This document shows positions 9,001 through 61,388 of a DNA stretch of 64,000 nt, piece by piece (positions within the stretch are counted from its first letter, which is position 1; the number at the start of each line of letters is the position of its first letter). Source of the DNA: Balanoglossus misakiensis. Its lineage: Eukaryota; Animalia; Hemichordata. The translations under genes and the position numbers were made by a program. A model generated the notes under the pieces. The model was not told the origin of the DNA, ran no database searches, and worked only from the letters and a program-made list of their open reading frames with translations. The stretch is taken from positions 10,002,461 to 10,066,460 of the forward strand of contig CM082596.2 of the NCBI GenBank assembly GCA_040954595.2. The letters are read 5' to 3'.

Positions 9001-12000
9001 ATGTTTTTTTTCAAAATTGAACGAACCCATGATTTTTTTCAAAAATCGACGAAATTTTGAGATTTTGCAAAGTAGAAAATTTGTCATTTTTTGATGATTT
9101 TCACCCATGATTTTTTTCAAAAATCGACGAAATTTTGAGATTTTGCAAAGTCGAAAATTTGTCATTTTTTGATGATTTTCACCCATGATTTTTTTTTCAA
9201 AAACCGACAAAATTTTGAGATTTTGCAAAGTCGAAAATTTGTCATTTTTTGATTATTTTCACCCATGATTTTTTTCAAAAATCGACAAAATTTTTAGATT
9301 TGGCAAAGTCGAAAATTTGTCATTTTTTGATGATTTTCACCATGATTTTTTTTTAAAAATCGACGAAATTTTGAGATTTTGCAAAGTCGAAAATTTGTCA
9401 TTTTTTGATGATTTTCACCCATGATTTTTTTCAAAAATCGACGAAATTTGAGATTTTGCAAAGTCGAAAATTTGTCATTTTTTGATGATTTTCACCCATG
9501 ATTTTTTTCAAAAATCGACAAAATTTTGAGATTTTGCAAAGTCGAAAATTTGTCATTTTTTGATGATTTTCACCAATGATTTTTCTCAAAAATCGACGAA
9601 ATTTTGAGATTTTGCAAAGTCGAAAATTTGTAATTTTTTGATGATTTTCACCCATGTTTTTTTTCAAAATTGAACGAACCCATGATTTTTTTCAAAAATC
9701 GACGAAATTTTGAGATTTTGCAAAGACGAAAATTTGTAATTTTTTGATGATTTTCACCCATGTTTTTTTTCAAAATTGAACGAACCCATGATTTTTTTCA
9801 AAAATCGACGAAATTTTTAGATTTTGCAAAGTCGAAAATTTGTAATTTTTTGATGATTTTTACCCATGATTTTTTTTTTCAAAAATCGACGAAATTTTGA
9901 GATTTTGCAAAGACGAAAATTTGTAATTTTTTGATGATTTTCACCCATGACTTTTTTTCAAAAATTTACGAAATTTTGAGATTTTGCAAAGTCGAAAATT
10001 TGTCATTTTTTGATGATTTTCACCCATGTTTTTTTTTTCAAAAATCGACGAAATTTTGAGATTTTGCAAATTCGAAAATTTGTAATTTTTTGATGATTTT
10101 CACCCGTTTTTTTTCAAAAATCAACGAACCCATGATTTTTTTTTCAAAAAAGGACAACATTTTGAGATTTTGCAAAGTCGAAAATTTGTCATTTTTTGAT
10201 GATTTTCACCCATGATTTTTCTCAAAAATCGACGAAATTTTGAGATTTTGGAAAGTCGAAAATTTGTCATTTTTTGATGATTTTCACCCATGATTTTTTT
10301 TCAAAAATTGACGAAATTTTGAGATTTTGCAAAGTCGAAAATTTGTCATTTATTAATGATTTTCACCCATGATTATTTTTCAAAAATCGACAAAATTTTG
10401 AGATTTTGCAAAGTCGAAAATTTGTAATTTTTTGATGATTTTCACCCATGTTTTTTTTTCAAAATTGAACGAACCCATGATTTTTTTCAAAAATCGACAA
10501 AATTTTTAGATTTTGCAAAGTCGAAAATTTGTCATTTTTTGATGATTTTCACCCATGATTTTTTTTCAAAAATGTACGAAATTTTGAGATTTTGCAAAGT
10601 CGAAAATTTGTCATTTTTTGATGATTTTCACCCATGATTTTTTTCAAAAATCGACAAAATTTTGAGATTTTGCAAAGACGAAAATTTGTCATTTTTTGAT
10701 GATTTTCACCCATGATTTTTTTCAAAAGTCGACGAAATTTTGAGATTTTGCAAAGACAAAAATTTTTCATTTTTTGATGATTTTCACCCGTGATTTTTTT
10801 CAAAAATCGACAAAATTTTGAGATTTTGCAAAGTCGAAAATTTGACATTTTTTGATGATTTTCACCCATGTTTTTTTTCAAAAATCAACGACCCATGATT
10901 TTTTTTCAAAAATCGACGAAATTTAGAGATTTTGCAAAGTCGAAAATTTGTCATTTCTTAATGATTTTCACCCATGTTTTTTTTTCAAAAATCGACAAAA
11001 TTTTGAGATTTTGCAAAGTCGAAAATTTGTAATTTTTTGATGATTTTCACCAGTTTTTTTTTAAAAATCAACGAACCCATGATTTTTTTCAAAAATTGAC
11101 AACATTTTGAGATTTTGCAAAGTCGAAAATTTGTCATTTTTTGATGATTTTCACCCATGATTTTTTTCAAAAATCGACGAAATTTTGAGATTTTGCAAAG
11201 TCGAAAATTTGTCATTTTTTGATGATTTTCACCCATGATTTTTTTTTCAAAAACCGACAAAATTTTGAGATTTTGCAAAGTCGAAAATTTGTCATTTTTT
11301 GATTATTTTCACCCATGTTTTTTTTCAAAATTGAACGAACCCATGATTTTTTTCAAAAATCGACGAAATTTTGAGATTTTGCAAAGACAAAAATTTGTAA
11401 TTTTTTGATGATTTTCACCCATGTTTTTTTTCAAAATTGAACGAACCCATGATTTTTTTCAAAAATCGACGAAATTTTTAGATTTTGCAAAGTTGAAAAT
11501 TTGTAATTTTTTGATGATTTTTACCCATGATTTTTTTTTTCAAAAATCGACGAAATTTTGAGATTTTGCAAAGACGAAAATTTGTAATTTTTTGATGATT
11601 TTCACCCATGACTTTTTTTCAAAAATTTACGAAATTTTGAGATTTTGCAAAGTCGAAAATTTGTCATTTTTTAATGATTTTCACCCATGTTTTTTTTTTT
11701 CAAAAATCGACGAAATTTTGAGATTTTGCAAATTCGAAAATTTGTAATTTTTTGATGATTTTCACCCATGTTTTTTTTCAAAAATCAACGAACCCATGAT
11801 TTTTTTTTCAAAAAAGGACAACATTTTGAGATTTTGCAAAGTCGAAAATTTGTCATTTTTTGATGATTTTCACCCATGATTTTTCTCAAAAATCGACGAA
11901 ATTTTGAGATTTTGGAAAGTCGAAAATTTGTCATTTTTTGATGATTTTCTCCCATGATTTTTTTTCAAAAATTGACGAAATTTTGAGATTTTGCAAAGTC

Positions 12001-39084: not shown

Positions 39085-39528
39085 TTATCTCGAGATCTCG
39101 AGATAAAAAAATAAAAAGTCGGGAAAACGAATTGGAATTATCTCGAGATCTCGAGATAAAAAAATAAAAAGTCGGGAAAACGAACTTGAATTATCTCGAG
39201 ATCTCGAGATAAAAAAATAAAAAGTCGGGAAAACGAATTGGAATTATCTCGAGATCTCGAGATAAAAAAATAAAAAGTCGGGAAAACGAACTTGAATTAT
39301 CTCGAGATCTCGAGATAAAAAAAATAAAAAGTCGGGAAAACGAATTGGAATTATCTCGAGATCTCGAGATAAAAAAATAAAAAGTCAGGAAAACGAATAG
39401 CATTATCTCGAGATCTCGAGATAAAAAAATAAAAAGTCAGGAAAACGAATGGAATTATCTCGAGATCTCGAGATAAAAAAATAAAAAGTCAGGAAAACGA
39501 ATGGAATTATCTCGAGATCTCGAGATAA
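39085..39528. repeat. ~53-bp minisatellite with a perfect 22-bp palindrome TTATCTCGAGATCTCGAGATAA (9 palindromes); probably the interior of a non-autonomous element
   Basis: Palindrome starts at 39085, 39138, 39191, 39244, 39297, 39351 and onward to 39507; near-identical linkers AAAAATAAAAAGTCRGGAAAACGAA... Confidence 0.95.
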
Positions 39529-47543: not shown

Positions 47544-47892
47544 TTAAAAAAAACACTGACTGACAATACTGCCAATAACAAAATATTGTTTTATCTTCTC
47601 TTTGTATACAGCGCACCAATATAGAAACATTGTATATTGATCTGAACTCTCCTCCATATCCTTTGCCAAGTCAAGGTAGTATTAATTACAGTGGATTTAC
47701 TGTAGAACAATTGGCTGCCATGTTGGGTGAGGTAAGTAAGCGATGTAAAACATTTCATACAACACTGCATACTAACAATAGTCATATCAACCTGACAAGG
47801 GAAGATGAAAAAAGCCTAAGCCCCTTTGAACAGCTGTATTTTCTTGGAATGTGGTTTTATAATACACTTTGATTGATTCCCTTACGAAAAAG

Positions 47893-48848
47893 TTCTATAG
47901 AACTTCTATTGCTTTTCAATAAAAATTTCTATTAAGAATCAATGGATATTCCATGGAAACTCAATGGAATTTCTATGGAAATTCTATTGACTTCTATGGA
48001 CTTTTGGCCACTTTTCAATTAAACTTCTATAGAAGAGATATAGATTTCAATTGATTTTCTATAGAAGAGATATAGATTTCAATTGATATTCTATTGATTT
48101 TCTATAGAAGAGTTATCGATGTGTATTGATTTTCTATAGAAGAGATATAGATTTCAATTGATTTTCTATTGAACTTCTATAGAAGAGTTATAGATGTGTA
48201 TTGATTTTCTATAGAAGAGATATAGATTTCAATTGATATTCTATTGATTTTCTATAGAAGAGTTATCGATGTGTATTGATTTTCTATAGAAGAGATATAG
48301 ATTTCAATTGATTTTCTATTGAACTTCTATAAAAGAGTTATAGATGTGTATTGATTTTCTATAGAAGAGATATAGATTTCAATTGATATTCTATTGATTT
48401 TCTATAGAAGAGTTATCGATGTGTATTGATTTTCTATAGAAGAGATCTAGATTTCAATTGATTTTCTATTGAACTTCTATAAAAGCGTTATAGATGTGTA
48501 TTGATTTTCTATAGAAGAGATATATATTTCAATTGATATTCTATTGATTTTCTATAGAAGAGTTATCGATGTGTATTGATTTTCTATAGAAGAGATATAG
48601 ATTTCAATTGATATTCTATTGATTTTCTATAGAAAAGTTATCGATGTGTATTGATTTTCTATCGAAGAGATCTAGATTTCCATTGATATGCTATTGATTT
48701 TCTATAGAAGAGATATAGATTTCAATTGATTTTCTATTTAACTTCTATAAAAGAGTTATAGATGTGTATTGATTTTCTATAGAAGAGATATAGATTTCAA
48801 TTGATTTTCTATTGAACTTCTATAGAAGAGTTATAGATGTGTATTGAT
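47893..48848. repeat. Left subterminal repeat array of the transposon (short units, 150-bp higher-order period)
   Basis: Recurrent TTCTATAGAA, TTCAATTGA and TTCTATTGA; the sequence at 48121 recurs at 48271 and 48421. Confidence 0.95.
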
Positions 48849-49173
48849 CCTGTATTATCTGGTTACCAAAGACAGAGGGGTGGGATTGGGGCAAAAAGAT
48901 TGATATTTATAAAAAAAAATACTTCACTGAATACTCAGCATATTCTTTCAGTCTGTTGTTTAATATTAACACATAAATGTGCTAAATACAGTGTTGCCTC
49001 AGTCAAATTAGTTTTCTGCTGGCTTTCAGTGAAATATTTGAGAAAAAACCAACATACTCATCAAATTAAAACTTAACATTTTATTGCAATAAATCAATAA
49101 AAAAGGTGACATGAAAAATAGAGTTTAAATAAATAAAGATAAGCAAAACACATAAATGAAACAGTTAACCACA

Positions 49174-52100
49174 CTACTTGTGTTTTGCTTCGGAGTAAAT
49201 TTCCATTTTAATGTACTGCTCCACCTCAGCAACCTTGCAGTCAAACTTGCTGCATACAATATCTGTGGGGAAACACAGAAAAATAATTGCTGAATGAAAT
49301 TGTACTGAACCAAAGCTCAAACCTTAGAGATGTCTTTGTTTGCCATACTATATTTTTTTTTCTAAAACCTAACCGCCAGAAACAAAGAACAAACTAAATG
49401 AAAATATATCAAGGTTACGGTAGAGAGAATGGTATATTTGATTTGCAGTCCCTTAAACGCTTTTACAACTTTTTAAAGATGGCCTATCTCATTCCACATA
49501 CACGTCTCCATTAGCAGACCAAAGCAGATTTTGCAAAAGCACTGCAAAATTTGCACCCTATCTACAGCAGGTTACACTATGTTAAAGAGGTATACATCAC
49601 TGATCACTCCAAATATACAAAATGCCAATATATCTTTGTGTATTCCTATGACCTAAAATAGCAAATTAATAATTGGAGATGATAAGTAACTTAATACCTA
49701 CATACCTTTAATGGCTCTTATTTTGTCGGCATCCAGCGCTGGTTTGGGTAAAGAACCCTTGACTGAGTTGCACACTCTGCCACTATACGAATGAGTCCTG
49801 AGTGTTTCCCTATCAAACACCACTGCCATCAAATCATACGTCATTTTCTTCGCTGTTGATTCGTCAACGCGGCTCAGCTGCTTGGCAGTTACTATCATCT
49901 CATCATTGACCAAAATCTGAAAAAGACCAAAATAATTGGTAACACTAGAGGCAGACACAAAATAAATATGATTTCTGTCATAGAAAACCTGATAAAATAG
50001 AAAGTACAGTAAAAACTCTATCACAGAGTTCTTACAATACTTTCTATTTTCTATGAAATCAACAGCTCTAACAATACAACCACATTTTCCATGGAAGTAA
50101 AGTTGCAGAGCCATGATCTGTTCTAAACAGAGTTGCAATCATCAGGTCTGCAGATAAATAAACAAAAACTATATGACCAAAATAATTAAATTCTTTGTTT
50201 TGCATCCACTCAGATTTTGATAGGTAAGTGCACAAGTTCAGAAACACAGAAATTTTTAACAGGTAAATTTAATATTTACTCGATAGTTTCCATGTAATAC
50301 AAGCACCTTATCAAGAATCCCAGCAGAAACTAATTTTTCACCCTGTTAAGTTGCACTCAAATGTGACATTCTGCAAGCATGCAGGTGTTCCAATCACATT
50401 TCCCAAAGCATGTATACAAAAAATTTGCAGGCAGAAAAGTTTTTTTCATGAAATCTCGCAAAACATACACATGCAGAACAAAGAATTTTCTTACTTAGGC
50501 CATATGGTTGAACCTAAGAAGCAGAAGTATTATTTGAATGACTATGACTATGTCTATGCAGATTCCTGAAATCACACATTCATGATAAATTGAAATAGAT
50601 ATCAACAGTTACCTCTTCACTGTTCAATGGGGCATCATGTGTTCCACTGGAGTTATTTGTCTTTGAGACTGCAGGTGCACCAGTCTTTACACCAAATGTT
50701 CTTTTTACATCAGCAATTTGTCCAAGCAGGCCAGGTAACTCTATACCATTTGAAAAGATTAGAAAATAGAGGTATAGGACATATGTTTATTGATTTAACT
50801 CCAATAGTTCATAGGAAAAGGAATAAAAAAGAGACAATCCTGGCAAGAAAATATTGTTAACCAATAAGACAGTGGACCATCATCCATAAACAAAATTATT
50901 TTAATTGTGGTGAACTGAGATGTTTACATACTGACCAGCATTATCAAACTATTGTCAAGTAACTACAAAACACATAGTTTGAGAAAGCTGGTCACAAATG
51001 AAGGCTTTCATTGGTGCTGAAAAAGGTAAGTTACAGCTTGCCCAGCTTAGTCATCATGTACAAGTGAATAAATTAAATGTTTTTCATTTATAAATTAATT
51101 ATGGTAACATTTTACTTTGTATTTCAAAACATATATGGAGTCCTTGATACTTCAATTTCTCGTCAAAAAAATGCTGAAAATGATGTTCTTTTGTGATATT
51201 CATGAGTATTTTCAAAAACAATCATTCTGTGGCATATTTTGGCTGTTGACTTTTGATATTTCTAAAAATAAAACCAAAAGAACACTGACAAAATAATTTG
51301 ATTCAGCTAAAACCTACTCATTGCATTAAAAATATACAAGAACTAAAACAATCCACTGACTTTATTCAATGCGTGTATCAATATTCTTTTACCTTTTAAC
51401 ACTCGAAGAGAATAGCGTAGTGCAGCATTTTCCTCCTTCAATTCCCTTATTTCTTGGTGTAGCTTGTCCTCATCATAGCCTTCTGAGCCACTGGACACTG
51501 GTGTTGAAGCACGGAATGAACTCTAGAATGCAGAGGAACATTAATGAAATAGACTAAAAATCACAGTTGTCAACAATAACAACACAGTTCATACATGGAT
51601 TTCAACATGCTTGTGATATTTACCCATCAACAGCACTGAACTGCAGTCACTTTTTGATGGAAATATTATTAGTTTCAATAATTGCATAACTTTGCTCACA
51701 TTTTAAAGATACATTTTGCAGGGGTTGCGTTAACCCCATATTTTGCTTCCCGAACTTTTCAGGGGGACTCTTACTTTTTACACAGAGGGGTCCCATCTCT
51801 CACATAAATACAAAAATTTTAATTTCCTGTCTTTAATTTCATGTGACAGGGACTCATTCTGAGCAAACACTAGTGCAATCCCTGTTTCATAATTAAGCCA
51901 CACAAGCTCACAACACTCTCTTATACGTCAGCATTATTTTAGCTTTTGTGCAAGTTTGGAAGTAAAAGTATATGCTTCAGGGGCAGAAATTGTAGCGTAT
52001 GACATTGCCAGTACTTACAGACTTAAGTGACTGGACATCCTCCTCCATTTTTTTACGAACTTCAGATGTCTTCTTGCTTTCTAACTTTCTCAGCAAATTT

Positions 52101-53004
52101 AAAGACGAATTCTTTTGGCTGATCTTCTTTTTTTTTATTCAAGTTATTTTTTTCCTGAAAAAGAAATGAAATGATTATTGTGAGATACTTCTGAACACTT
52201 GGCATGGAGTTTTGAAAATGGGTGTTTATATTGACAACGAGAAATTAATATCATCTGTACCTAGATAAATCATATTGAATTCTGCATCAGCCACATGGTA
52301 GTTAAATATCAACTTACCGGTACATAATCATCTTCATCATCTTCGCTGTCGGTGTAGATTCTCTTTGGTGCCTTTTCACGTTTCCCCCGTCCATATTCTG
52401 GAGTCTTAATGTTTGTGTTCACCCCTTTTTTGACATAGACGTTGGCTAGTCGCAACAGCTCCTGCCTGTCATCTGTAAAGATAAACATTATGACCTGGTT
52501 GTGAAAAACACACACACACACACAACTGAATGAGAAACTTTTGCTGACGATCAAAAATGCACAACACAAACCACGTAAAAAAATTGTGTCACAAAGTAAA
52601 ACAAAGGGGTTGCTGGCTTTCCTGGCAACTTGTTTTGTTATGCAAATAGTATAACAATGAACAGGAAGTAAACAAGCTGTGTTTGGTTCAAGGGAGCCCA
52701 AGACCCTGGGATCGAGATAAAGGTAACTTTCTACAATGAACGTCTTCAACATTGGGAAATGTTTCTACCTGACACGTTTTTTTTGAGTTTTGAAAAAATC
52801 CAAACAATTCTTACCGCTAAACTTGATAACTCTTGCTACATATCTCGCCGGATCTCTTCCTGCCTTCTTTGATGGCCACTGGACAGCACAATCTTCGTCG
52901 AAGTCAAAACTCATAACGTCGTCTTCATCGAGATCTTCTATCCAATTCGTCTCACCAACTTCAACACTCTTTTCTTCGTAAAAATCAAATAAAGCGTACT
53001 TCAT
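49174..53004 (-). CDS. 7-exon BEN-domain protein (BEND5-like: N-terminal domain, basic/acidic linker, coiled coil, C-terminal BEN), ~345 aa after removing one extra A in exon 3
   Basis: Exons (-): 53004-52815, 52472-52318, 52154-52019, 51522-51393, 50740-50613, 49916-49706, 49262-49174. All introns are GT-AG with phases 1,0,0,1,0,1. BEN-like segment KKMTYDLMAVVFDRETLRTHSYSG...KPALDADKIRAIKDIVCSKFDCKVAEVEQYIK; coiled coil DKLHQEIRELKEENAALRYSL; AATAAA on - at 49080-49085; +1 frameshift, most simply in the A9 run 52128-52136. Confidence 0.85.
51719..51884. mobile_element. Possible hAT-like MITE in intron 3 of the BEN gene
   Basis: CAGGGGTTGC...GCAATCCCTG termini; no clear TSD. Confidence 0.35.
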
Positions 53005-53443
53005 GGTGACTAGATCGACGTTCGTAAATAGAGAAATCTTAAGCGGAGCTGGTAGCGAGTGACGCGTGGTGTGTCTTCGGTGGTTACTGAATCAGCTGTA
53101 AAAGGTCAGGAGTTCGCCGACTATTTATTTACCTTGATGCATGCTGGGTAAGAAATGCGGGCGTTTATGAGAAGAGTCAAAGGTCATGCAGTAGGTCATG
53201 TGATTTTAAAATACAGCATTTCTTAGAGCTGAGATGTTATTTGAAAAAAAAACACGTTAAGATATCATTCACTTTATTTTGAAACGCCAAAATTCACCTT
53301 AAAGTAGTACCACAGATCGATCGGAACGTTAAAATTTGTACTTGAGATGATGCCATATCTATCACCCAGCATGCACCGCAGTCACCGACGCTTGCACAGC
53401 TGATTCACTAGATCATCAGATCGCTGTTCGTCGCAGAAGAGAC
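53005..53443. promoter_or_regulatory. Bidirectional promoter between the BEN gene and the transposase, with mirror-image motif pairs
   Basis: TGAATCAGCTGT (53088-53099) pairs with ACAGCTGATTCA (53396-53407); TGCATGCTGGGT (53138-53149) pairs with ACCCAGCATGCA (53364-53375); divergent ATGs at 53004 and 53444; CpG-rich. Confidence 0.7.
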
Positions 53444-56400
53444 ATGTCGAGGGTCGTGCGCGGTCCATACAAGTGTTACCTAAATGATACCGAAGTCAGT
53501 ATTCCAAAGAGAACCTTGTTTAGATGGCGAATTCGCGATAAACATGGTTTAGAGGTAAGTGTAGCTCTTTTTTACCACGGCCTGAAGTATGCGCCGCGCT
53601 TGCTGCAGCTGCAGTTCCGTAGCCTGCAACATTCCTCGATGTGTGTGTGTTACGGAAAGGTGCCCCTTCCGTAACACACACATCGAGGAAAGTTGCTGGC
53701 TACGGAACTGCAGCAAGCGCCGGGCGAAAACTGGCATTGTCTGTCATTTCTCGGTGATTGTTATAATTATAGGGTGTCATAGGTAGTGTATGCATTTTAT
53801 TTCTGTTCTTTTTGGTTTTATTAAAGTCCAAAAGGCTAGCTTGTACATCTCCAACTCTTTGTCTAAATATAGCAGCATTTATGCTGCTGCAGTATTTTTT
53901 TAATTGAAAAATAATTTAGTACTACGAATATTGAGGGAAAAAAACAAAAAAAAACAGGTCATTACTGACACCAGCCTACTTTTCTTTATAAGAACTATTA
54001 AAGCATTAGCACTTTCCTCTGAGATTTAGAATCAAATGATGTAATATGCATTATGTAGTCCCGCTATACTGAAATACATATCTTAACCACATTCTATTCA
54101 TATCTTTCAGACTGATGATATCGCCATCGACACTGACAGTTGTTCTGTAAATAGTGACTACCAATCTGAAAGTGGCAATGATGAATATTTATATGATGGT
54201 AACGCCTCTCATGACAGTTATCGAAGTGGACTAACTTTCTCTCACAGAGATACAGACATTGATGAATACAGCACTACAGAACCAGACACAGATGACTATT
54301 TATCAGCCGACGAAACATCAGATGATCAGACATCATTCATCATAGATGACCAAGTACCAGCTCAGGAAACGTCACATGTCAACTTACTGAGTGACGGAAG
54401 TGGAGAGATTGAAGAAAGTGAAGAAATTATACACACACGCATATCAAACAAAAACACTAATGGGACGGGCACAGGAGAAAGTGGTGATGAATTGGTAGGT
54501 TCTGCTTTTGACTTTAAAAATTTTATGGTTGCCAATTTGAATTTTGTGCGGTAACTTACCTTAATCACTTATGATCTATGACTTTTTACATTATTTTGAT
54601 GATTTACTTTCAAAGTAAGTGTACTTACTGAAGGGTGTGCATTTACAACTTGAAAAAGTGGACATGGTGCAATATACACATTGATTCCTTGACAGAAACA
54701 TGACAGTGATACACACCAAAATGTCTCTATTCTTTTAGCAATGTGACCAACTTTTGATCATCGGAAATTTAAAAATTGTTTATTTGTTTAGCTATTACAA
54801 CATCGTTTAGTATTCCACTAATCAATCTGTTTTATATGTTAATGCAACTTAATACACATCGTTATTATAAAATACAAGTATGAAAGCTAGTGTCTCTATG
54901 GTTGTGAATGCATTTATTTTAATTCTCAAGGAGGCCTATTATTTAGAGCATGACCCCTGTTTTCAAAATCTGGTGATCAATGCATAAGAGATCAGAGCCT
55001 GTTTTCACAAGGTCAAATCAAGGTTAAATGTGTCAGTCCTGTGAGTGTGACCATTGCATTGTTCATGTTATTTCTGGTTGTCCTATTTTTCTAAATGTAC
55101 TACTATTTTTCTAATTCTCAGGGAGCTGAAGAAGGAACTGGAGAGATGAATGTCACAACAGAACAGCTTTGTCTACTTCTCCAGGCTTTTGTCCTCAGAC
55201 ACCGACTTACGAAAGATGCTCTCAAAGACTTGTTGCACGTCATTAACCTGATAGCACCAGAAACTGTACCAGCAACACCATACTTTTTTAAGAACTGTTT
55301 TGCTGAGACAGCTGTGTCGTGTAAGAAGCACTTCTATTGCTGTAGTTGTATGGCATATCTTGGTGCCGAGGGCGAAATTCAAACTGACACCACTTGTGGT
55401 AGCTGTAATGAGCCTTTCAGTGAGCAAATATCTGTAGCAAATAATAATTTTTTCATTGTAATGCCAATCAAGGACCAACTTGTAGATTTATTAGAAAATC
55501 AGAATATTAATAGTGAATTGTCAGTTTCAACTTTATTGGATGGCTCCATTTATCAAGATCTCCTTGAAAATGGTATCATAAGAGATAATGACTTAACCCT
55601 TCTCTGGAATTGTGATGGGGTCCCTGCCTTTAAGTCCTCTGGTTTCTCAATATGGCCCATTCAGTGTGTAGTGACAGAACTGACTCCAAAATGTCAAAAA
55701 CAAAATATTCTCATGCCTGGCCTATGGTTTGGTCAATCCAAACCACAGATGGATTGTTTTTTGGCACCATTTGGTGAAGAATGTGTGAAATTGGGTAATG
55801 ATGGTTTTACCTGGAGAAATCAAAGTTCTGGTGAGATAATCACAACATGTGTCCATGTGTTATTGTGTTCTTCTGATTCAGCTGCCAGGCCTTTGATGCG
55901 CAATTGCAAACAGTATAATTGGCAGTATGGATGTGACTGGTGCCTGCACCCAGGGGAATACATAGCAAAGGGCAATGGTCATGCACGTGTATATAGTGTA
56001 CAGGATCTTCCTCATCCTGAGTTGAGGAATAACGATCAGTATGAGGATTGTTGTAGGCAGGCGGTTGAAAGAGACCGACCAATATTGGGTGTGAAGGGAC
56101 CCAGTGTGTGTATGTTGCTTCCCAATTTCGACATTGTGAAAGGGTTTGTTCCTGATTATTTGCATTGTGTTTTATTAGGGGTTGTCAGGCAAATCACCTC
56201 ACTTTGGCTTGACAGTGAAAACAAGCAGAAACCCTGGTACTTAGCCCCTGCTAAACAACGTGTAATTAATTCCCGTTTGGTGCAGCAGTTTCCTCCAAAT
56301 GAAATAACCAGGACACCACGATCGTTAGATTACAGAAAGTATTGGAAAGGTTCGGAGTGGAGGGCATTTCTCCTTTTCTATTCTTTAATTGTTCTGAGAG

Positions 56401-57338
56401 GTGTGTTACCTGCAGTTTTTTCTGAACCATTGGTTTTTGCTGGTTTTTGGAATCCACACGTTACTTCAGGTAAAAGTAACAGCCCGCTCTGTTGATCTGG
56501 CAGAGCAGGCAATCAGAAAGTTTGTGACTCAAACTGAATGCCTTTATGGGAAAGAAGTGATGTCATTTAATATGCACATTCTACTGCATTTGTCTAGTAG
56601 TGTTAGGGAATGGGCACCTCTCTGGGCTACATCTTCCTGTGTGTTTGAAAGTCACAATGGTGTAATCATGAAGCTATTTCAGGGTACTCAAAGTGTGCCT
56701 TCACAGATATCAAACACATTCTGTCTGTGGAGAGATTTATCAAGAAGATCCACAATTATACCACAGGATAGTGATCTGAGGCCACTATTTGACAAATTGT
56801 CTAGAGGAATTGTGCATTTAAAGAGGGACTTTCATAGCTGCTCAGGGGTTGTGGCCATGGGAGCTGCTGACAAACGGATATAAGATTGACAGACAGGTTA
56901 GCTGTAGAGGAGGCTGTGGGCCACCCTATCTTGAATGTGAACGCCAAATATTACAAGAGATTCACTATATCAGGTGCTGTGTTCACAACAAGTAGCTACA
57001 CTAGGGCAGCAAAGAGAACGAACCATTATTTTCAGGGACAAGATGAGCAATTGTATGTAATAAGAAACCTTGTAATTCTTAGGCTAGGTTGCATATGCCA
57101 AGGTGATTGTCACTGTAATGAAAGATCATTCCTGATAGCCAGTAGGTGTTTAAGTGGGAGGTCAATGTTTGTTGACAATGAAATTGGCATACAGTGTACA
57201 CATGTAAAACCACTGCGTGAGATTTCACATGAAAGAATTGCTGTGCGACCGTCGTTTTTGAGACGTAAATGTGTAGTTCTTGGAATGGGTGAGTCAATTT
57301 ACCTCTCACCACTCCCCAACCCTTTTGAAAGGGACTGA
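53444..57338 (+). pseudogene. CACTA/EnSpm-type DDE transposase, 3 exons, ~900 aa, with two frameshifts in this copy
   Basis: Exons: 53444-53554 (MSRVVRGPYK...IPKRTLFRWR), 54111-54494 (acidic, open 128 codons), 55122-57338; both introns are phase 0 GT-AG. Motifs: CxxC...CxxC, NCDGVP (D), SSDSAAR (D), GCDWC, PDYLH, WKGSEWR, NMHILLHL, VFESHNG (E). Frameshifts at the T6 run 56416-56421 and at ~56880; AATAAA at 57474-57479. Confidence 0.93.
53596..53720. repeat. GC-rich hairpin in transposase intron 1
   Basis: CTGCAGTTCCGTAGCCTGCAACATTCCTCGATGTGTGTG(TG)TTACGGAA pairs with TTCCGTAACACACACATCGAGGAAAGTTGCTGGCTACGGAACTGCAG; short loop. Confidence 0.9.
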
Positions 57339-57662
57339 TAAGGGCTGCAAAAAAGTCTGTAGGTAGCAAACACTTACCCCAGTACTGTAGTTGAGAGTCC
57401 GTTTCTTCTGATTTGTATTTATATACAGATTTGTATATGTACCAGTGTTTTGCAGATATCATTTTGAAATTGTAATAAATGAATTATTTACAGAGACATA
57501 TTTGTCAAGTATTCATTCACAATATAAAATAGAATGATTAAGAATGAATAGCTGTGTGTTTGAGCTGAATGTATACTGGTATCTGTTTGCTCGGGGTGAA
57601 CTGGTTACTTTCCATGGCCAAACGATACAATCTTCGCCTAAATCAAAATCCTTAGCGTCCGG

Positions 57663-58890
57663 TCATGGTTGGCAATATTTTTCAATAGAAAATCTATTGA
57701 CGGCAATAGAATTCAATAGAGACAGTGGATTTTTGTTAAAATACACTGTTCACATTGAAATGTATGTAGTTGGGGCAAACCTGACAAACTCTTTGTCATT
57801 TTGTGATGATTATGTGCACACATTTGCTAAAAACTAGGGGAAAATGTTTCTTTCACCTATTTCATGGTTGGCAATATTTTTCAATAGAAAATCTATTGAC
57901 GGCAATAAAATTCAATAGAGTCAGTGGATTTTTGTTAAAATACACTGTTCACAGTGAAATATATGTAGTTGGGCCAAACCTGACAAATTCATTTGTCGTT
58001 TTGTGTTGATTATGTGCACACATTTGCTAAAAACTAGGGGAAAATGTTTCTTTCACCTATTTCATAGTTGGCAATATTTTTCAATAGAAAATCTATTGAC
58101 GGCAATAGAATTCAATAGAGACAGTGGATTTTTGTTAAAATACACTGTTCACAGTGAAATGTATGTAGTTGGGGCAAACCTGACAAATTCCTTTGTCATT
58201 TTGTGATGATTATGTGCACACATTTGCTAAAAACTAGGGAAAAATATTTCTTTCAACCATTTCAAGGTTGACAATATTTTTCAATAGAAAATCTATTGAC
58301 GGCAATAGAATTCAATAGAGTCAGTGGATTTTTGTTAAAATACACTGTTCACAGTGAAATATATGTAGTTGGGCCAAACCTGACAAATTCATTTGTCGTT
58401 TTGTGTTGATTATGTGCACACATTTGCTAAAAACTAGGGGAAAATGTTTCTTTCACCTATTTCATGGTTGGCAATATTTTTCAATAGAAAATCTATTGAC
58501 GGCAATAGAATTCAACAGAGACAGTGGATTTTTGTTAAAATACACTGTTCACAGTGAAATGTATGTAGTTGGGGCAAACCTGACAAATTCCTTTGTCGTT
58601 TTGTGTTGATTATGTGCACACATTTGCTAAAAACTAGGGGAAAATGTTTCTTTCACCTATTTCATGGTTGGCAATATTTTTCAATAGAAAATCTATTGAC
58701 ATCAATAGAATTCAATAGAGTCTGTGGATTTCTGTTAAAATATACTTTGTTCACAGTGAAATATGTGTAATGGGGCAAATCTTACAAATTGCTTTGTCAT
58801 TGTATGATAATCATGTTAAAACCTATTAAAAATCATTTTTCACTTATTTCATGCTAGGTAATATTTTCAATAGAAAATCTATTGACGGCT
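57663..58890. repeat. Right subterminal array: ~6 tandem 200-bp units
   Basis: Units start at ~57663, 57862, 58062, 58262, 58462, 58662; each has TTCAATAGAAAATCTATTGACGGCAATAGAATTCAATAGAG or a close variant. Confidence 0.97.
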
Positions 58891-59511
58891 AGTTTAATGG
58901 AAATCATCTGTATAATTCTATAGAAAATAATATTCTATTGATTTTCTATTGAATTCTACACGTTTCTATAGAGGTCTATAGAGTTCTATAGAACCTTTTT
59001 CGTAAGGGTTGAAATGTGTTTTACATCTAAATGCATCGTTTTGGGAACATTTTCTAGTATGTATGTGATTATTAAATTGAACTTGTATATTTGCTGGGGC
59101 AACTAAATTTTCAGTAAAGATAAGGAATGCCCAATGTTCGGATTGTCTTCAAAAAGATGACAACAACTCAAGTCTCAAAAACTCTTTTGTTTTTAAGTTT
59201 GAATTGTAGTTGTCACATCATTAACGACTTCACATGTGAATGCCAAATTTCGATTCTTAGCAAATGTTGTATTTTCACAGAGAGGAGTCCATTTCTCAAT
59301 CATATCACCCCGCAAACTGCCTGAACTCCAAAAACTTAACTTCAAAGCATATGGTGAAGTACAGATGGTACCAATGAAGGATTATGCGGCTGATCCACAC
59401 CACATGATACTTCTCAAAGGTTATCAACTTGCAGGTAGGTATCTGTTGCTACGCAAATATTTGCAATCATACCATGATCTAGATTCTAAAGTTCACTGGT
59501 CAAATATATAT

Positions 59512-61388
59512 GGCCAAAGTAAGTAAATTCTTTGTTTTGCGTCCGCGCGCGCGTAGGTTTTCGGGTTTTTTTGAGAAAAATAACACAAAACTCATTTGCA
59601 TAAATTTCCAATCCACGGCGGTATTTTGTCGAAAAAAATGACATTTCGACAAATGCCACTTTACGGCAGTCCTATTCTAATCATGGTGTGACGTAAAACG
59701 ATACGCCCTACAGCAACTGCGCACGCTCGTAGTTGAAGTCTGTCAACACACGCTGCTGGCTGTACGCGTCCTGTCGCCGCGCATCTCCTCTGTCTGCTGG
59801 GAAAGCCAGGGATCCCCGTGATTTAACATGAATGAAGCCAACGAATAAGTCGTCCTAAAGGTTACGGAAAAAGATAAAACTATCCTTGACTAGATCAGGA
59901 TGGAAGTGACCGACGCGCAAAACTTTGCACGGCTACTGGAAGCCATGGTGAATGTACCATAAAGCCGGCCAGACAGTGTTTCAGTCGCCGATCGTCACCA
60001 CCTCGTCTACCAAAGGATGTTTTTCACCTTTTGTGCGGCCCCATACCCAGGTAACTAATTTATCTTAGTAGAGAAAATTTTTATAGTCAAGCCAGAACAC
60101 AATAATCTTTGTTGCTGTTTGATCACAGGGGGCTCTCCCTCCGCGATTTTGTTTGTTGTTATTGATTGGCATAATAAATAAATATGGTCAAGTTTGTTTG
60201 TTGACATGTAAGGTATACTAGTATTCAACGGTCAGGGTTAGCGTGTACATGTATTCAACGGTTAGAGTAAGTGTTGGCATTTTTTCGATCCATGGCACTC
60301 CCACCTGACCGTTGAATACACCGTGACCCTAACCCTGACCGTTGAATATTATACCTAACATGTCAACAAACAAACGTGACCATATTTATTTATTATGCCA
60401 ATCAATAACAACAACAAACAAACAAACAAACAAAATCGCGGAGGGAGAGCCCCCTGTGGTTTGATTTCTGTCTTTTAAATCCAGTCACATGTTTTTTTGA
60501 TTTTGTTAGATGTTTTCCTGGACAGTTTTTAAATATATTCATAAAGTGTGAAACAGTTATATTTGTCACATTTTATTTTCAAATATTTGATATTTAAAAT
60601 TCATTTCATTTGTGATTTTCAGATCTAGGTCCAACAGATGATGGTGAGCATTACAAATCGTTCTGTCAGTGAAATGGTACTAGAGAAAGGGAGCATTTAA
60701 AGGGGGGGGGGTAAGCAAAAGAAAATTCTATGGTGGTAGATCAGTAAAAATAGGTGGTGGGACTGTGAAGTTCAGTGAATGTAGAACATTTGTGTTTATT
60801 GCAATAAAGTCATATTTTAAGATTGAAAATTATCATCTCATGGGTTGGCATATGCATCATACTTCGTAGTGAGATGTTATCACTATACTCAAGCATGCTT
60901 TCGTATTTTGTTTACAGAATTTTCAAAAACATTTCTTCACAGAAATGTTTCATTGTGATCAACCAAACTTGGCAGATGGAAGTTTCTCCACATTACTACA
61001 GTGCCAGGTTGAATAGTCCTGATGTTTGATATGTTTGTGGGTCAGGAATCATCTCATCCCTATTACACCGGATATGAGGGAACAGTACCAGTCTAGCCAG
61101 CCAGAACTTGTAGAGACAGTGGCCACATTCAGCACACAAATAAGAAATCTAAAACTCGTAAAAGAAAAGCAAATGACAGATTAAAGGCTACAAATGACAT
61201 TGTATTTTGATCATATTGTAGTAGTGTGTCACACTACTACATAAATGTGCATATTGCACGAGAAAAACTCTGAAATAAAGGCAAACTAATTTTGTGTTAT
61301 TTTTTGTGTGTGTGTTTTTTGACCGCTTACCCTCGTACCTTTTAGAATTTTTAGTGGACGCAAAACAAAGAATTTACTTACTTTGGCC
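59512..61388. mobile_element. Non-autonomous TIR element with GGCC termini (Zator or PIF/Harbinger type)
   Basis: Perfect 33-bp TIR GGCCAAAGTAAGTAAATTCTTTGTTTTGCGTCC; flanks TAT/TAA (imperfect 3-bp TSD). Confidence 0.8.
60124..60458. mobile_element. Foldback MITE with 7-bp TSD (P-element-like), nested in the GGCC element
   Basis: CACAGGGGGCTCTCCCTCCGCGATTTTGTTTG... long TIR (~120 bp); TSD GTTTGAT at 60117-60123 and 60459-60465. Confidence 0.85.

Follow-up and report, generated by a model that had tools for sequence, protein, structure and literature searches.

We analyzed a 64,000-nucleotide stretch of the genome of the hemichordate Balanoglossus misakiensis (hereafter, the window, in which coordinates without a locus label are counted), where an 11,130-bp transposon at 47879-59008 carries two genes. 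The gene on the plus strand encodes a transposase of the tnp2/EnSpm type, and the gene on the minus strand encodes a protein with a BEN domain, which we refer to as the partner. The two genes lie wholly inside the element, head to head, with their start codons 440 bp apart (53004 on the minus strand and 53444 on the plus strand). From left to right, the locus reads as follows.

47612-47731, plus strand: exon of the host gene MED25, upstream of the insertion and outside the element (Pfam Med25_VWA; in-frame join)
47877-47878: left copy of the TT target duplication (a single TT in the empty allele)
47879-47892, plus strand: left terminal inverted repeat, 14 bp, starting with CCC (sequence match)
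47893-48850: left subterminal array, with a 75-bp tandem unit in 10.6 copies (48025-48816) and 40 TCWATWGA motifs
49080-49085, minus strand: AATAAA of the BEN gene
49174-49262, minus strand: BEN gene exon 7, final BEN helices and stop codon
49706-49916, minus strand: BEN gene exon 6, most of the BEN domain (Pfam BEN)
50170-50505: inverted-repeat element of ~330 bp nested in BEN gene intron 5
50613-50740, minus strand: BEN gene exon 5, linker
51393-51522, minus strand: BEN gene exon 4, coiled coil (Pfam coiled-coil matches below the cut-off; long helix in a homolog model)
52019-52154, minus strand: BEN gene exon 3, basic linker, in which an extra base in an A-run shifts the frame of the window copy
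52318-52472, minus strand: BEN gene exon 2, helix with a basic and acidic motif
52815-53004, minus strand: BEN gene exon 1, Tudor-like beta barrel
53005-53443: CpG-rich gap between the start codons, likely the shared promoter, a role that we infer
53444-53554, plus strand: transposase exon 1, with a short motif of the YKxYL...PRxT type that is present in related loci too
54111-54494, plus strand: transposase exon 2, acidic linker
55122-57338, plus strand: transposase exon 3, with Cys pairs of the zinc-binding type, the conserved D, D and E, and two frameshifts
57474-57479, plus strand: AATAAA of the transposase gene
57663-58994: right subterminal array, with a 200-bp unit in 5.7 copies (57663-58798), terminal motifs and 26 TCWATWGA motifs
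58995-59008, minus strand: right terminal inverted repeat, 14 bp (sequence match)
59009-59010: right copy of the TT target duplication (empty allele)
59281-59434, plus strand: exon of MED25, downstream of the insertion and outside the element (Pfam Med25_VWA, E 8e-15)

The first 14 bases from 47879 are the exact reverse complement of the last 14 ending at 59008 (CCC...GGG, 14/14 identical), and TT adjoins both termini. We compared the right junction with public sequencing contigs of one sample (runs X1 and X2). Two contigs from each run fuse the left flank directly to position 59009 with a single TT, which confirms the 2-bp duplication and reveals an empty allele. Run X3 contains only a small share of the element's words (0.14), and runs X4 and X5, which consist of short pieces at depth 2 and repeats only, were not used. 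The insertion lies within an intron of MED25: three exons between 45414 and 59434 match Pfam Med25_VWA in order, the element sits in an intron, and the two exons that border it join in frame. The exon at 59281-59434 is also covered by higher-depth contigs that carry differences, and therefore further copies of that stretch may exist.

Animal TRC elements are defined by CCC termini, a 2-bp duplication and a Transposase_21 domain (PMC1636069; papers are cited here and below for those parts of their text that were available, unless they are named as a whole). The element belongs to this animal TRC/EnSpm group of the CACTA superfamily and not to CACTA in the strict plant sense, as it has CCC termini and a 2-bp duplication where plant En/Spm elements have CACTA termini and a 3-bp duplication.

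The transposase gene has three exons, with GT-AG introns of consistent phases, and is predicted to encode ~900 residues. Its match to Transposase_21 (E 9.6e-7, 28.6 bits) is exactly equal to the Pfam cut-off, and PF02992 is annotated on many of 60 homologs. The closest of the 60, from Glandiceps talaboti, is 70% identical; the others, from molluscs, echinoderms, fish, arthropods, a cnidarian and further sources, are 30-46% identical. Residues D165, D252, E510, C271/C274, H348 and H486/H490 are conserved in 98-100% of these homologs. A D, D, E series with CxxC and HxxxH motifs is what we take to be the signature of animal TRC/EnSpm transposases, and D165, D252 and E510 are the putative catalytic triad. 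With frameshifts near 56420 and 56880, the window copy cannot encode the full transposase; these are not assembly errors, because a gapless X1 contig over 52578-56912 carries both of them. The motif encoded by exon 1 was found in 3 of the 60 database proteins by a strict pattern and in 21 loci by a profile. Two transposases of the family (P0051 and P0027) are predicted with an N-terminal Sleeping Beauty-type helix-turn-helix or SAM domain, which could be fusions or gene-model errors. Intron 1 holds a 41-bp inverted repeat (95%) that encloses an inner hairpin (53608-53714).

The BEN gene runs from 53004 down to 49174 in seven exons with GT-AG introns and is predicted to encode 345 residues. Its intron phases agree only after the one extra base in the A-run of exon 3 is discounted, and none of the alternative splice sites among the listed candidates convincingly rescues this exon. 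The X1 contig is without the extra base. It differs from the window by eight substitutions, four of which were translated: one leaves the protein unchanged, and at the other three the residue of X1 is a better fit to the homologs. Judging by these differences, the partner gene is open and the transposase broken in X1, and the window copy is slightly more decayed. Both genes are frameshifted in the window copy, which is itself inactive. The ratio of observed to expected CpG is 1.23 in 53000-53499, versus 0.0-0.6 across most of the element.

A preliminary description of this DNA had placed both genes head to head inside an element bounded by terminal repeats and a target duplication, had split the BEN gene into seven short exons, had given each gene its own AATAAA and had noted dense motif arrays at both ends; all of this agrees with the coordinates above. 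Its phase-consistent introns are right for the transposase, and for the BEN gene only when the extra base is left out. Its classification as CACTA/EnSpm stands at the level of the superfamily and fails at the termini, which are those of animal TRC elements. It had missed the MED25 host intron and the Tudor-like N-terminal domain, and it makes no mention of the frameshift in the BEN gene.

The partner combines a Tudor-like barrel with a coiled coil and a BEN domain. As already proposed in the preliminary description, the BEN domain is present: exon 6 matches Pfam BEN at E 1.5e-7, above the curated cut-off, which is also reached by 6/6 full-length homologs and 7/9 exons from related loci. Word-based homolog searches gave no relative for exon 6 (0/43 candidates) or exon 1 (0/9), an unfiltered search gave 36 relatives, and none of 16 pattern matches in viral contigs was confirmed. 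The closest full-length homolog, P0083 from Ptychodera flava (“BEND6-like”), matches exons 1-2 at E 5e-25 within this set of 36. The BEN fold was assessed on a model of P0083 and not on the window's own protein. In this model, a four-stranded barrel accompanied by a helix is followed by a disordered linker, a helix of 30 residues and, at the C-terminus, a domain modelled with confidence, which matches Insensitive-BEN (4ix7) at a Foldseek E of 1.5e-8 and Bsg25A (4x0g) at Z 16.3 (root-mean-square deviation (rmsd) 1.3, 104 aligned).

For the barrel, we folded the window's exon 1 together with 11 homologs, at a predicted local distance difference test score (pLDDT) of 79. The best three matches of the model are all hybrid Tudor domains, those of ARID4B (Z 7.9; rmsd 1.2, 50 aligned), KDM4C (Z 6.9) and ARID4A (Z 6.5), and the next match reaches 4.3; the Foldseek E is 0.43 at best, and the barrel has no Pfam match. 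One Trp is invariant in 12 aligned barrel sequences. Going by the model, “Tudor-like” seems a fair label for the barrel, though not a statement of family membership. An Atlas search with exon 1 returned eukaryotic clusters at 0.91-0.93, which have low recognition value and serve as a lead only.

The pairing of transposase and partner recurs well beyond the window. We surveyed the best 80 of 397 metagenome loci with a related transposase, which form 54 clusters at 85% DNA identity, with a barrel profile and with a BEN profile built without the surveyed loci. The BEN profile found nine exons, eight of which Pfam confirmed (seven at or above its cut-off), and the barrel profile found nine, rising to 16 after iteration on the loci; neither profile had any match in reversed open reading frames (ORFs). 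All 25 exon matches lie upstream of the transposase on the opposite strand and none downstream, with 201.9 kb scanned downstream versus 208.6 kb upstream. Partner exons were found in 16/54 clusters, most contigs being too short; by minimum length of upstream DNA, the rate was 12/23 (2.5 kb), 9/16 (4 kb), 9/10 (6 kb) and 7/7 (8 kb). Further barrel-like exons, with weak profile scores, emerged in loci L041 and L060 when ORFs were compared without bias. Locus L001, in the same cluster as L016, has no partner exon in its 4 kb upstream, and therefore some copies may lack the partner.

In a transposase tree of 69 sequences (FastTree, midpoint root), every large branch includes carriers of the partner, and the transposases of these carriers are only 35-46% identical to that of the window. 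In L016 and L014, both genes lie between CCC-type inverted repeats. The exon structure is shared as well, with a phase-1 donor after the barrel in 15/16 matches and one at the window's position inside BEN in 6/9 BEN exons. In nine divergent pairs of partner sequences, chosen by protein similarity, synonymous differences (0.63-0.93) exceed replacement differences (0.20-0.41); seven of these pairs are saturated, the other two give ~0.24 and ~0.42, and a tenth pair is near-identical. Distances between barrels follow those between transposases (Spearman Mantel r 0.50, p 0.0002, n 12). For BEN, the Pearson correlation is 0.56 (p 0.003) and the nearest neighbour is shared in 6/10 cases (p 0.001). 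One contig, L021:111-3761, is an internally deleted relative of L016 in which part of the partner gene is fused directly to the transposase core.

Several results pull the other way. Seven of the 16 clusters with at least 4 kb upstream gave no match in the hidden Markov model (HMM) survey, the flanking two bases differ between the ends at both L016 and L014, the choice of pairs by protein similarity favours low replacement rates, and the Spearman Mantel test of BEN against transposase distance is not significant (r -0.11, p 0.75, n 10). Co-divergence with the transposase is clear for the barrel and mixed for BEN, where the close pairs agree. However, because the pairing recurs in relatives with the same position, strand, introns and constraint, a one-off capture is very unlikely, and we have little doubt that this is a conserved two-gene element. 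The preliminary description had taken the BEN protein for a dedicated partner and not a neutral capture, and this is upheld: the BEN domain is detected, and sister elements carry the gene. It had also looked to related transposases for a linked divergent BEN gene and for purifying selection, both of which were found, and to a shared phylogeny, which the barrel supports and BEN supports in part.

The two ends of the element are rich in short palindromes. The palindrome-like motif TCWATWGA, from which both tandem arrays are constructed, occurs 66 times at the ends, never in the interior, including the promoter gap, and once in 14.9 kb of flank. The commonest 10-mers in the window's arrays, TTCTATAGAA and TTCAATTGAT, share the form of known BEN-bound palindromes: Insv (Insensitive) binds TTCCAATTGGAA at 2:1 (PMC8887127, PMC4281564), CCAATTGG palindromes are the targets of Insensitive dimers, and ACATGT is the site of NACC BEN domains (PMC4281564, PMC8887127). 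Among the related loci, downstream DNA exceeds 1.7 kb in 37 clusters, and in 23 of them a single palindromic hexamer forms an array, which we defined as at least five copies within 700 bp, excluding AT-only palindromes. The hexamer is CTATAG in nine of these clusters, CCATGG in ten, ATGCAT in two, and GTATAC and ACATGT in one each. As a control, 0/24 chunks of transposase-coding sequence reached five copies, but certain low-complexity stretches upstream did so.

A CCC-type end follows the array in 15 of the 26 loci examined, in a search that required GGG and not the A-run behind it. At L002, the right end (9328-9357) equals the window's 14-bp terminal repeat, the array motif is different, and the transposases are 46% identical; this single case suits two separate recognition modules. 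Four of eight loci, one of them weakly, yielded their last exons, too few for linking the recognition helix of BEN with the motif. At L070, two nested inverted-repeat pairs (L070:7464-14271) flank the transposase gene inside the element; they were rejected as element ends, the array and CCC-type end sitting at the end of the contig.

We read the locus as a two-gene animal EnSpm element in which, by analogy with the plant system, the partner is probably a TnpA-like helper that binds the palindrome arrays at the ends. This reading is suggested because the end arrays consist of short palindromes resembling known BEN sites. Both genes would be transcribed from the 440-bp CpG-rich gap between their start codons, which would act as a shared promoter, and their transcripts would be spliced at canonical sites, with intron positions common to relatives. 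The partner would dimerise through its coiled coil, and its BEN domains would bind the TCWATWGA palindromes. Coating both ends in this way, it would help the transposase to pair and excise them, the cuts being made at the 14-bp terminal repeats. The coat may also keep the ends open, and the Tudor-like barrel may contact chromatin or DNA. The window copy would have moved in trans, or before its transposase broke.

This proposal has to be set against a number of observations that count against it. The element contains no exact copy of the Insv consensus. Across the related loci, the motif class of the arrays tracks the transposase clades; L025 and L070 both have CCATGG, yet their BEN domains are 17% identical, and the BEN domain of L036 (CTATAG) is closest to that of L053, whose cluster has CCATGG. 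As the class follows the transposase and BEN similarity is no clear predictor of it, the array data do not discriminate which protein is the binder. A 2026 preprint reports that animal transposases typically include the TnpA-type DNA-binding domain as a fusion (10.64898/2026.08.24.746577), and the conserved N-terminal motif of the transposase could be a DNA binder. The partner might instead be confined to transcriptional regulation, working on the central promoter or on host genes as a self-repressor, an insulator or an anti-silencing factor, and the arrays would be bound by the transposase itself. Such a role would suit a family whose host BEN-solo proteins are repressors and insulator factors (PMC4281564), and would accord with the reported fusion of the Spm domain to animal transposases, the clade-bound motif classes and the presence of the N-terminal motif in 21 loci. 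However, known BEN sites are palindromes of the same form as the array motifs, TCWATWGA is absent from the interior, including the promoter gap, and L002 uncouples the terminal repeat from the subterminal motif. We consider a purely regulatory partner unlikely.

Less probable still is a partner that steers integration, with BEN holding the ends or the target DNA and the barrel reading a histone mark, so that insertion sites are chosen. The hybrid Tudor domains among the barrel's best matches and the position of the window copy in a gene intron would be in keeping with this, but the Z-scores are in a range that possibly means a common arrangement only, the Foldseek E-value is weak, and a single insertion shows no site preference. 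The capture of a host BEND gene as one-off neutral cargo, of the Pack-CACTA-like kind, is very improbable and has already been largely refuted by the linkage survey. The name “BEND6-like” of the closest full-length homolog and the frameshifted BEN gene of the window copy are what such a capture might leave behind. Against it stand the identical position, strand and introns beside such divergent transposases, the constraint on the partner's protein sequence and the X1 contig without the BEN frameshift, and the “BEND6-like” homologs are several loci within single fish genomes. An end-binding helper remains our preferred reading.

Comparison with described systems helps to place the element. SmTRC1 of Schistosoma and the TRCs of Aedes and Tribolium resemble it in CCC repeats, 2-bp duplication, Transposase_21, introns and tandem repeats, but there alternative splicing on the strand of the transposase yields the extra proteins, which are said to lack detectable conservation (PMC1636069), whereas here the barrel and the BEN domain are conserved and come from a separate divergent gene. 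Plant En/Spm, with TnpD and TnpA, shares the superfamily, a second protein and dense family-specific end motifs (10.64898/2026.08.24.746577). However, TnpA is a tandem helix-turn-helix derived from the transposase, is reported from flowering plants only, and has proven end binding (10.64898/2026.08.24.746577); the partner, encoded on the opposite strand, has an unrelated fold, with BEN and a beta barrel as its folded domains, and is predicted to bind the ends. It is a BEN protein and not a TnpA homolog, though it likely works alike. TnpA also changes the methylation of the clustered subterminal motifs that it binds. In PIF/Harbinger, which belongs to another superfamily, the transposase is accompanied by a separate gene for a DNA-binding Myb/SANT partner, and the duplication is 3 bp; the element here instead has Transposase_21, a 2-bp duplication and a BEN partner. 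Insensitive, Bsg25A/Elba1 and BEND6 are alike in having a single C-terminal BEN fold and palindromic sites (PMC4281564, PMC8887127, PMC10206803), but these BEN-solo factors are host genes with BEN as the sole domain described in the text available, whereas the partner has a Tudor-like barrel in addition and is part of a transposon. Plavaka EnSpm elements with PAG1-3 also have conserved accessory genes, one of them a proposed binder of its own array, but they occur in red algae and fungi and have ParB-like, 2OG-oxygenase, methylase and SET domains, with no BEN encountered in the accessible text (10.1101/2025.02.11.637652).

Our literature search found no paper that ties BEN to EnSpm; Repbase and the main BEN surveys were beyond its reach. 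A 2026 preprint on 962 Repbase Spm protein models (10.64898/2026.08.24.746577) places TnpA-like proteins only in flowering plants and speaks of “various accessory proteins”, unnamed in the text available, which may include BEN proteins. BEN is found only in bracoviruses in PMC5704228, not at all in PMC10027918 and PMC6431247, and in a reference only in PMC13465315. Prior annotation of the BEN-EnSpm pairing is quite possible, and the “undescribed” system of the preliminary description is undescribed with respect to the literature searched only.

Animal EnSpm elements have been described with the DNA-binding domain on the transposase, and TnpA-like helpers as confined to flowering plants. If our reading is true, the conserved helper gene of animal elements, unrelated to TnpA, would represent convergence and correspond in animals to the transposon-encoded factors that bind ends or counter silencing. 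With an end palindrome and a BEN domain of its own in each lineage, binding specificity would become predictable and measurable, and the window copy is of value here for its clean boundary, proven target duplication and empty allele. The pairing further suggests that many of the genes called BEND6-like by automatic annotation belong to transposons, and it has a bearing on the origin of BEN transcription factors. More tentatively, and with considerable doubt, a widespread branch of animal EnSpm elements may have independently recruited a Tudor-BEN equivalent of TnpA, at once a sequence-specific end binder and an anti-silencer, whose palindrome changes between lineages; this branch might be the source of many “BEND6-like” and “Insensitive-like” genes of invertebrates and fish, and possibly of host BEN-solo factors.

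The remainder of the window is repetitive in several places. Positions 1-37700 are an AT-rich satellite of ~37.7 kb with 78-79-bp units and higher-order repeats, and a 53-bp tandem array lies at 39085-39528 (8.4 copies, 95% matches). To the right of the transposon, a 1.9-kb element (59512-61388) has a perfect 33-bp terminal repeat starting with GGCC and is bypassed by other contigs. Its 3-base flanks suggest a non-autonomous element of the Harbinger type, the family to which we presume it to belong. The ~330-bp element nested in the BEN gene at 50170-50505 has the same type of termini, and within the 1.9-kb element an X3 contig skips from 60047 to 60915, with GT-AG at the ends of the skipped stretch.

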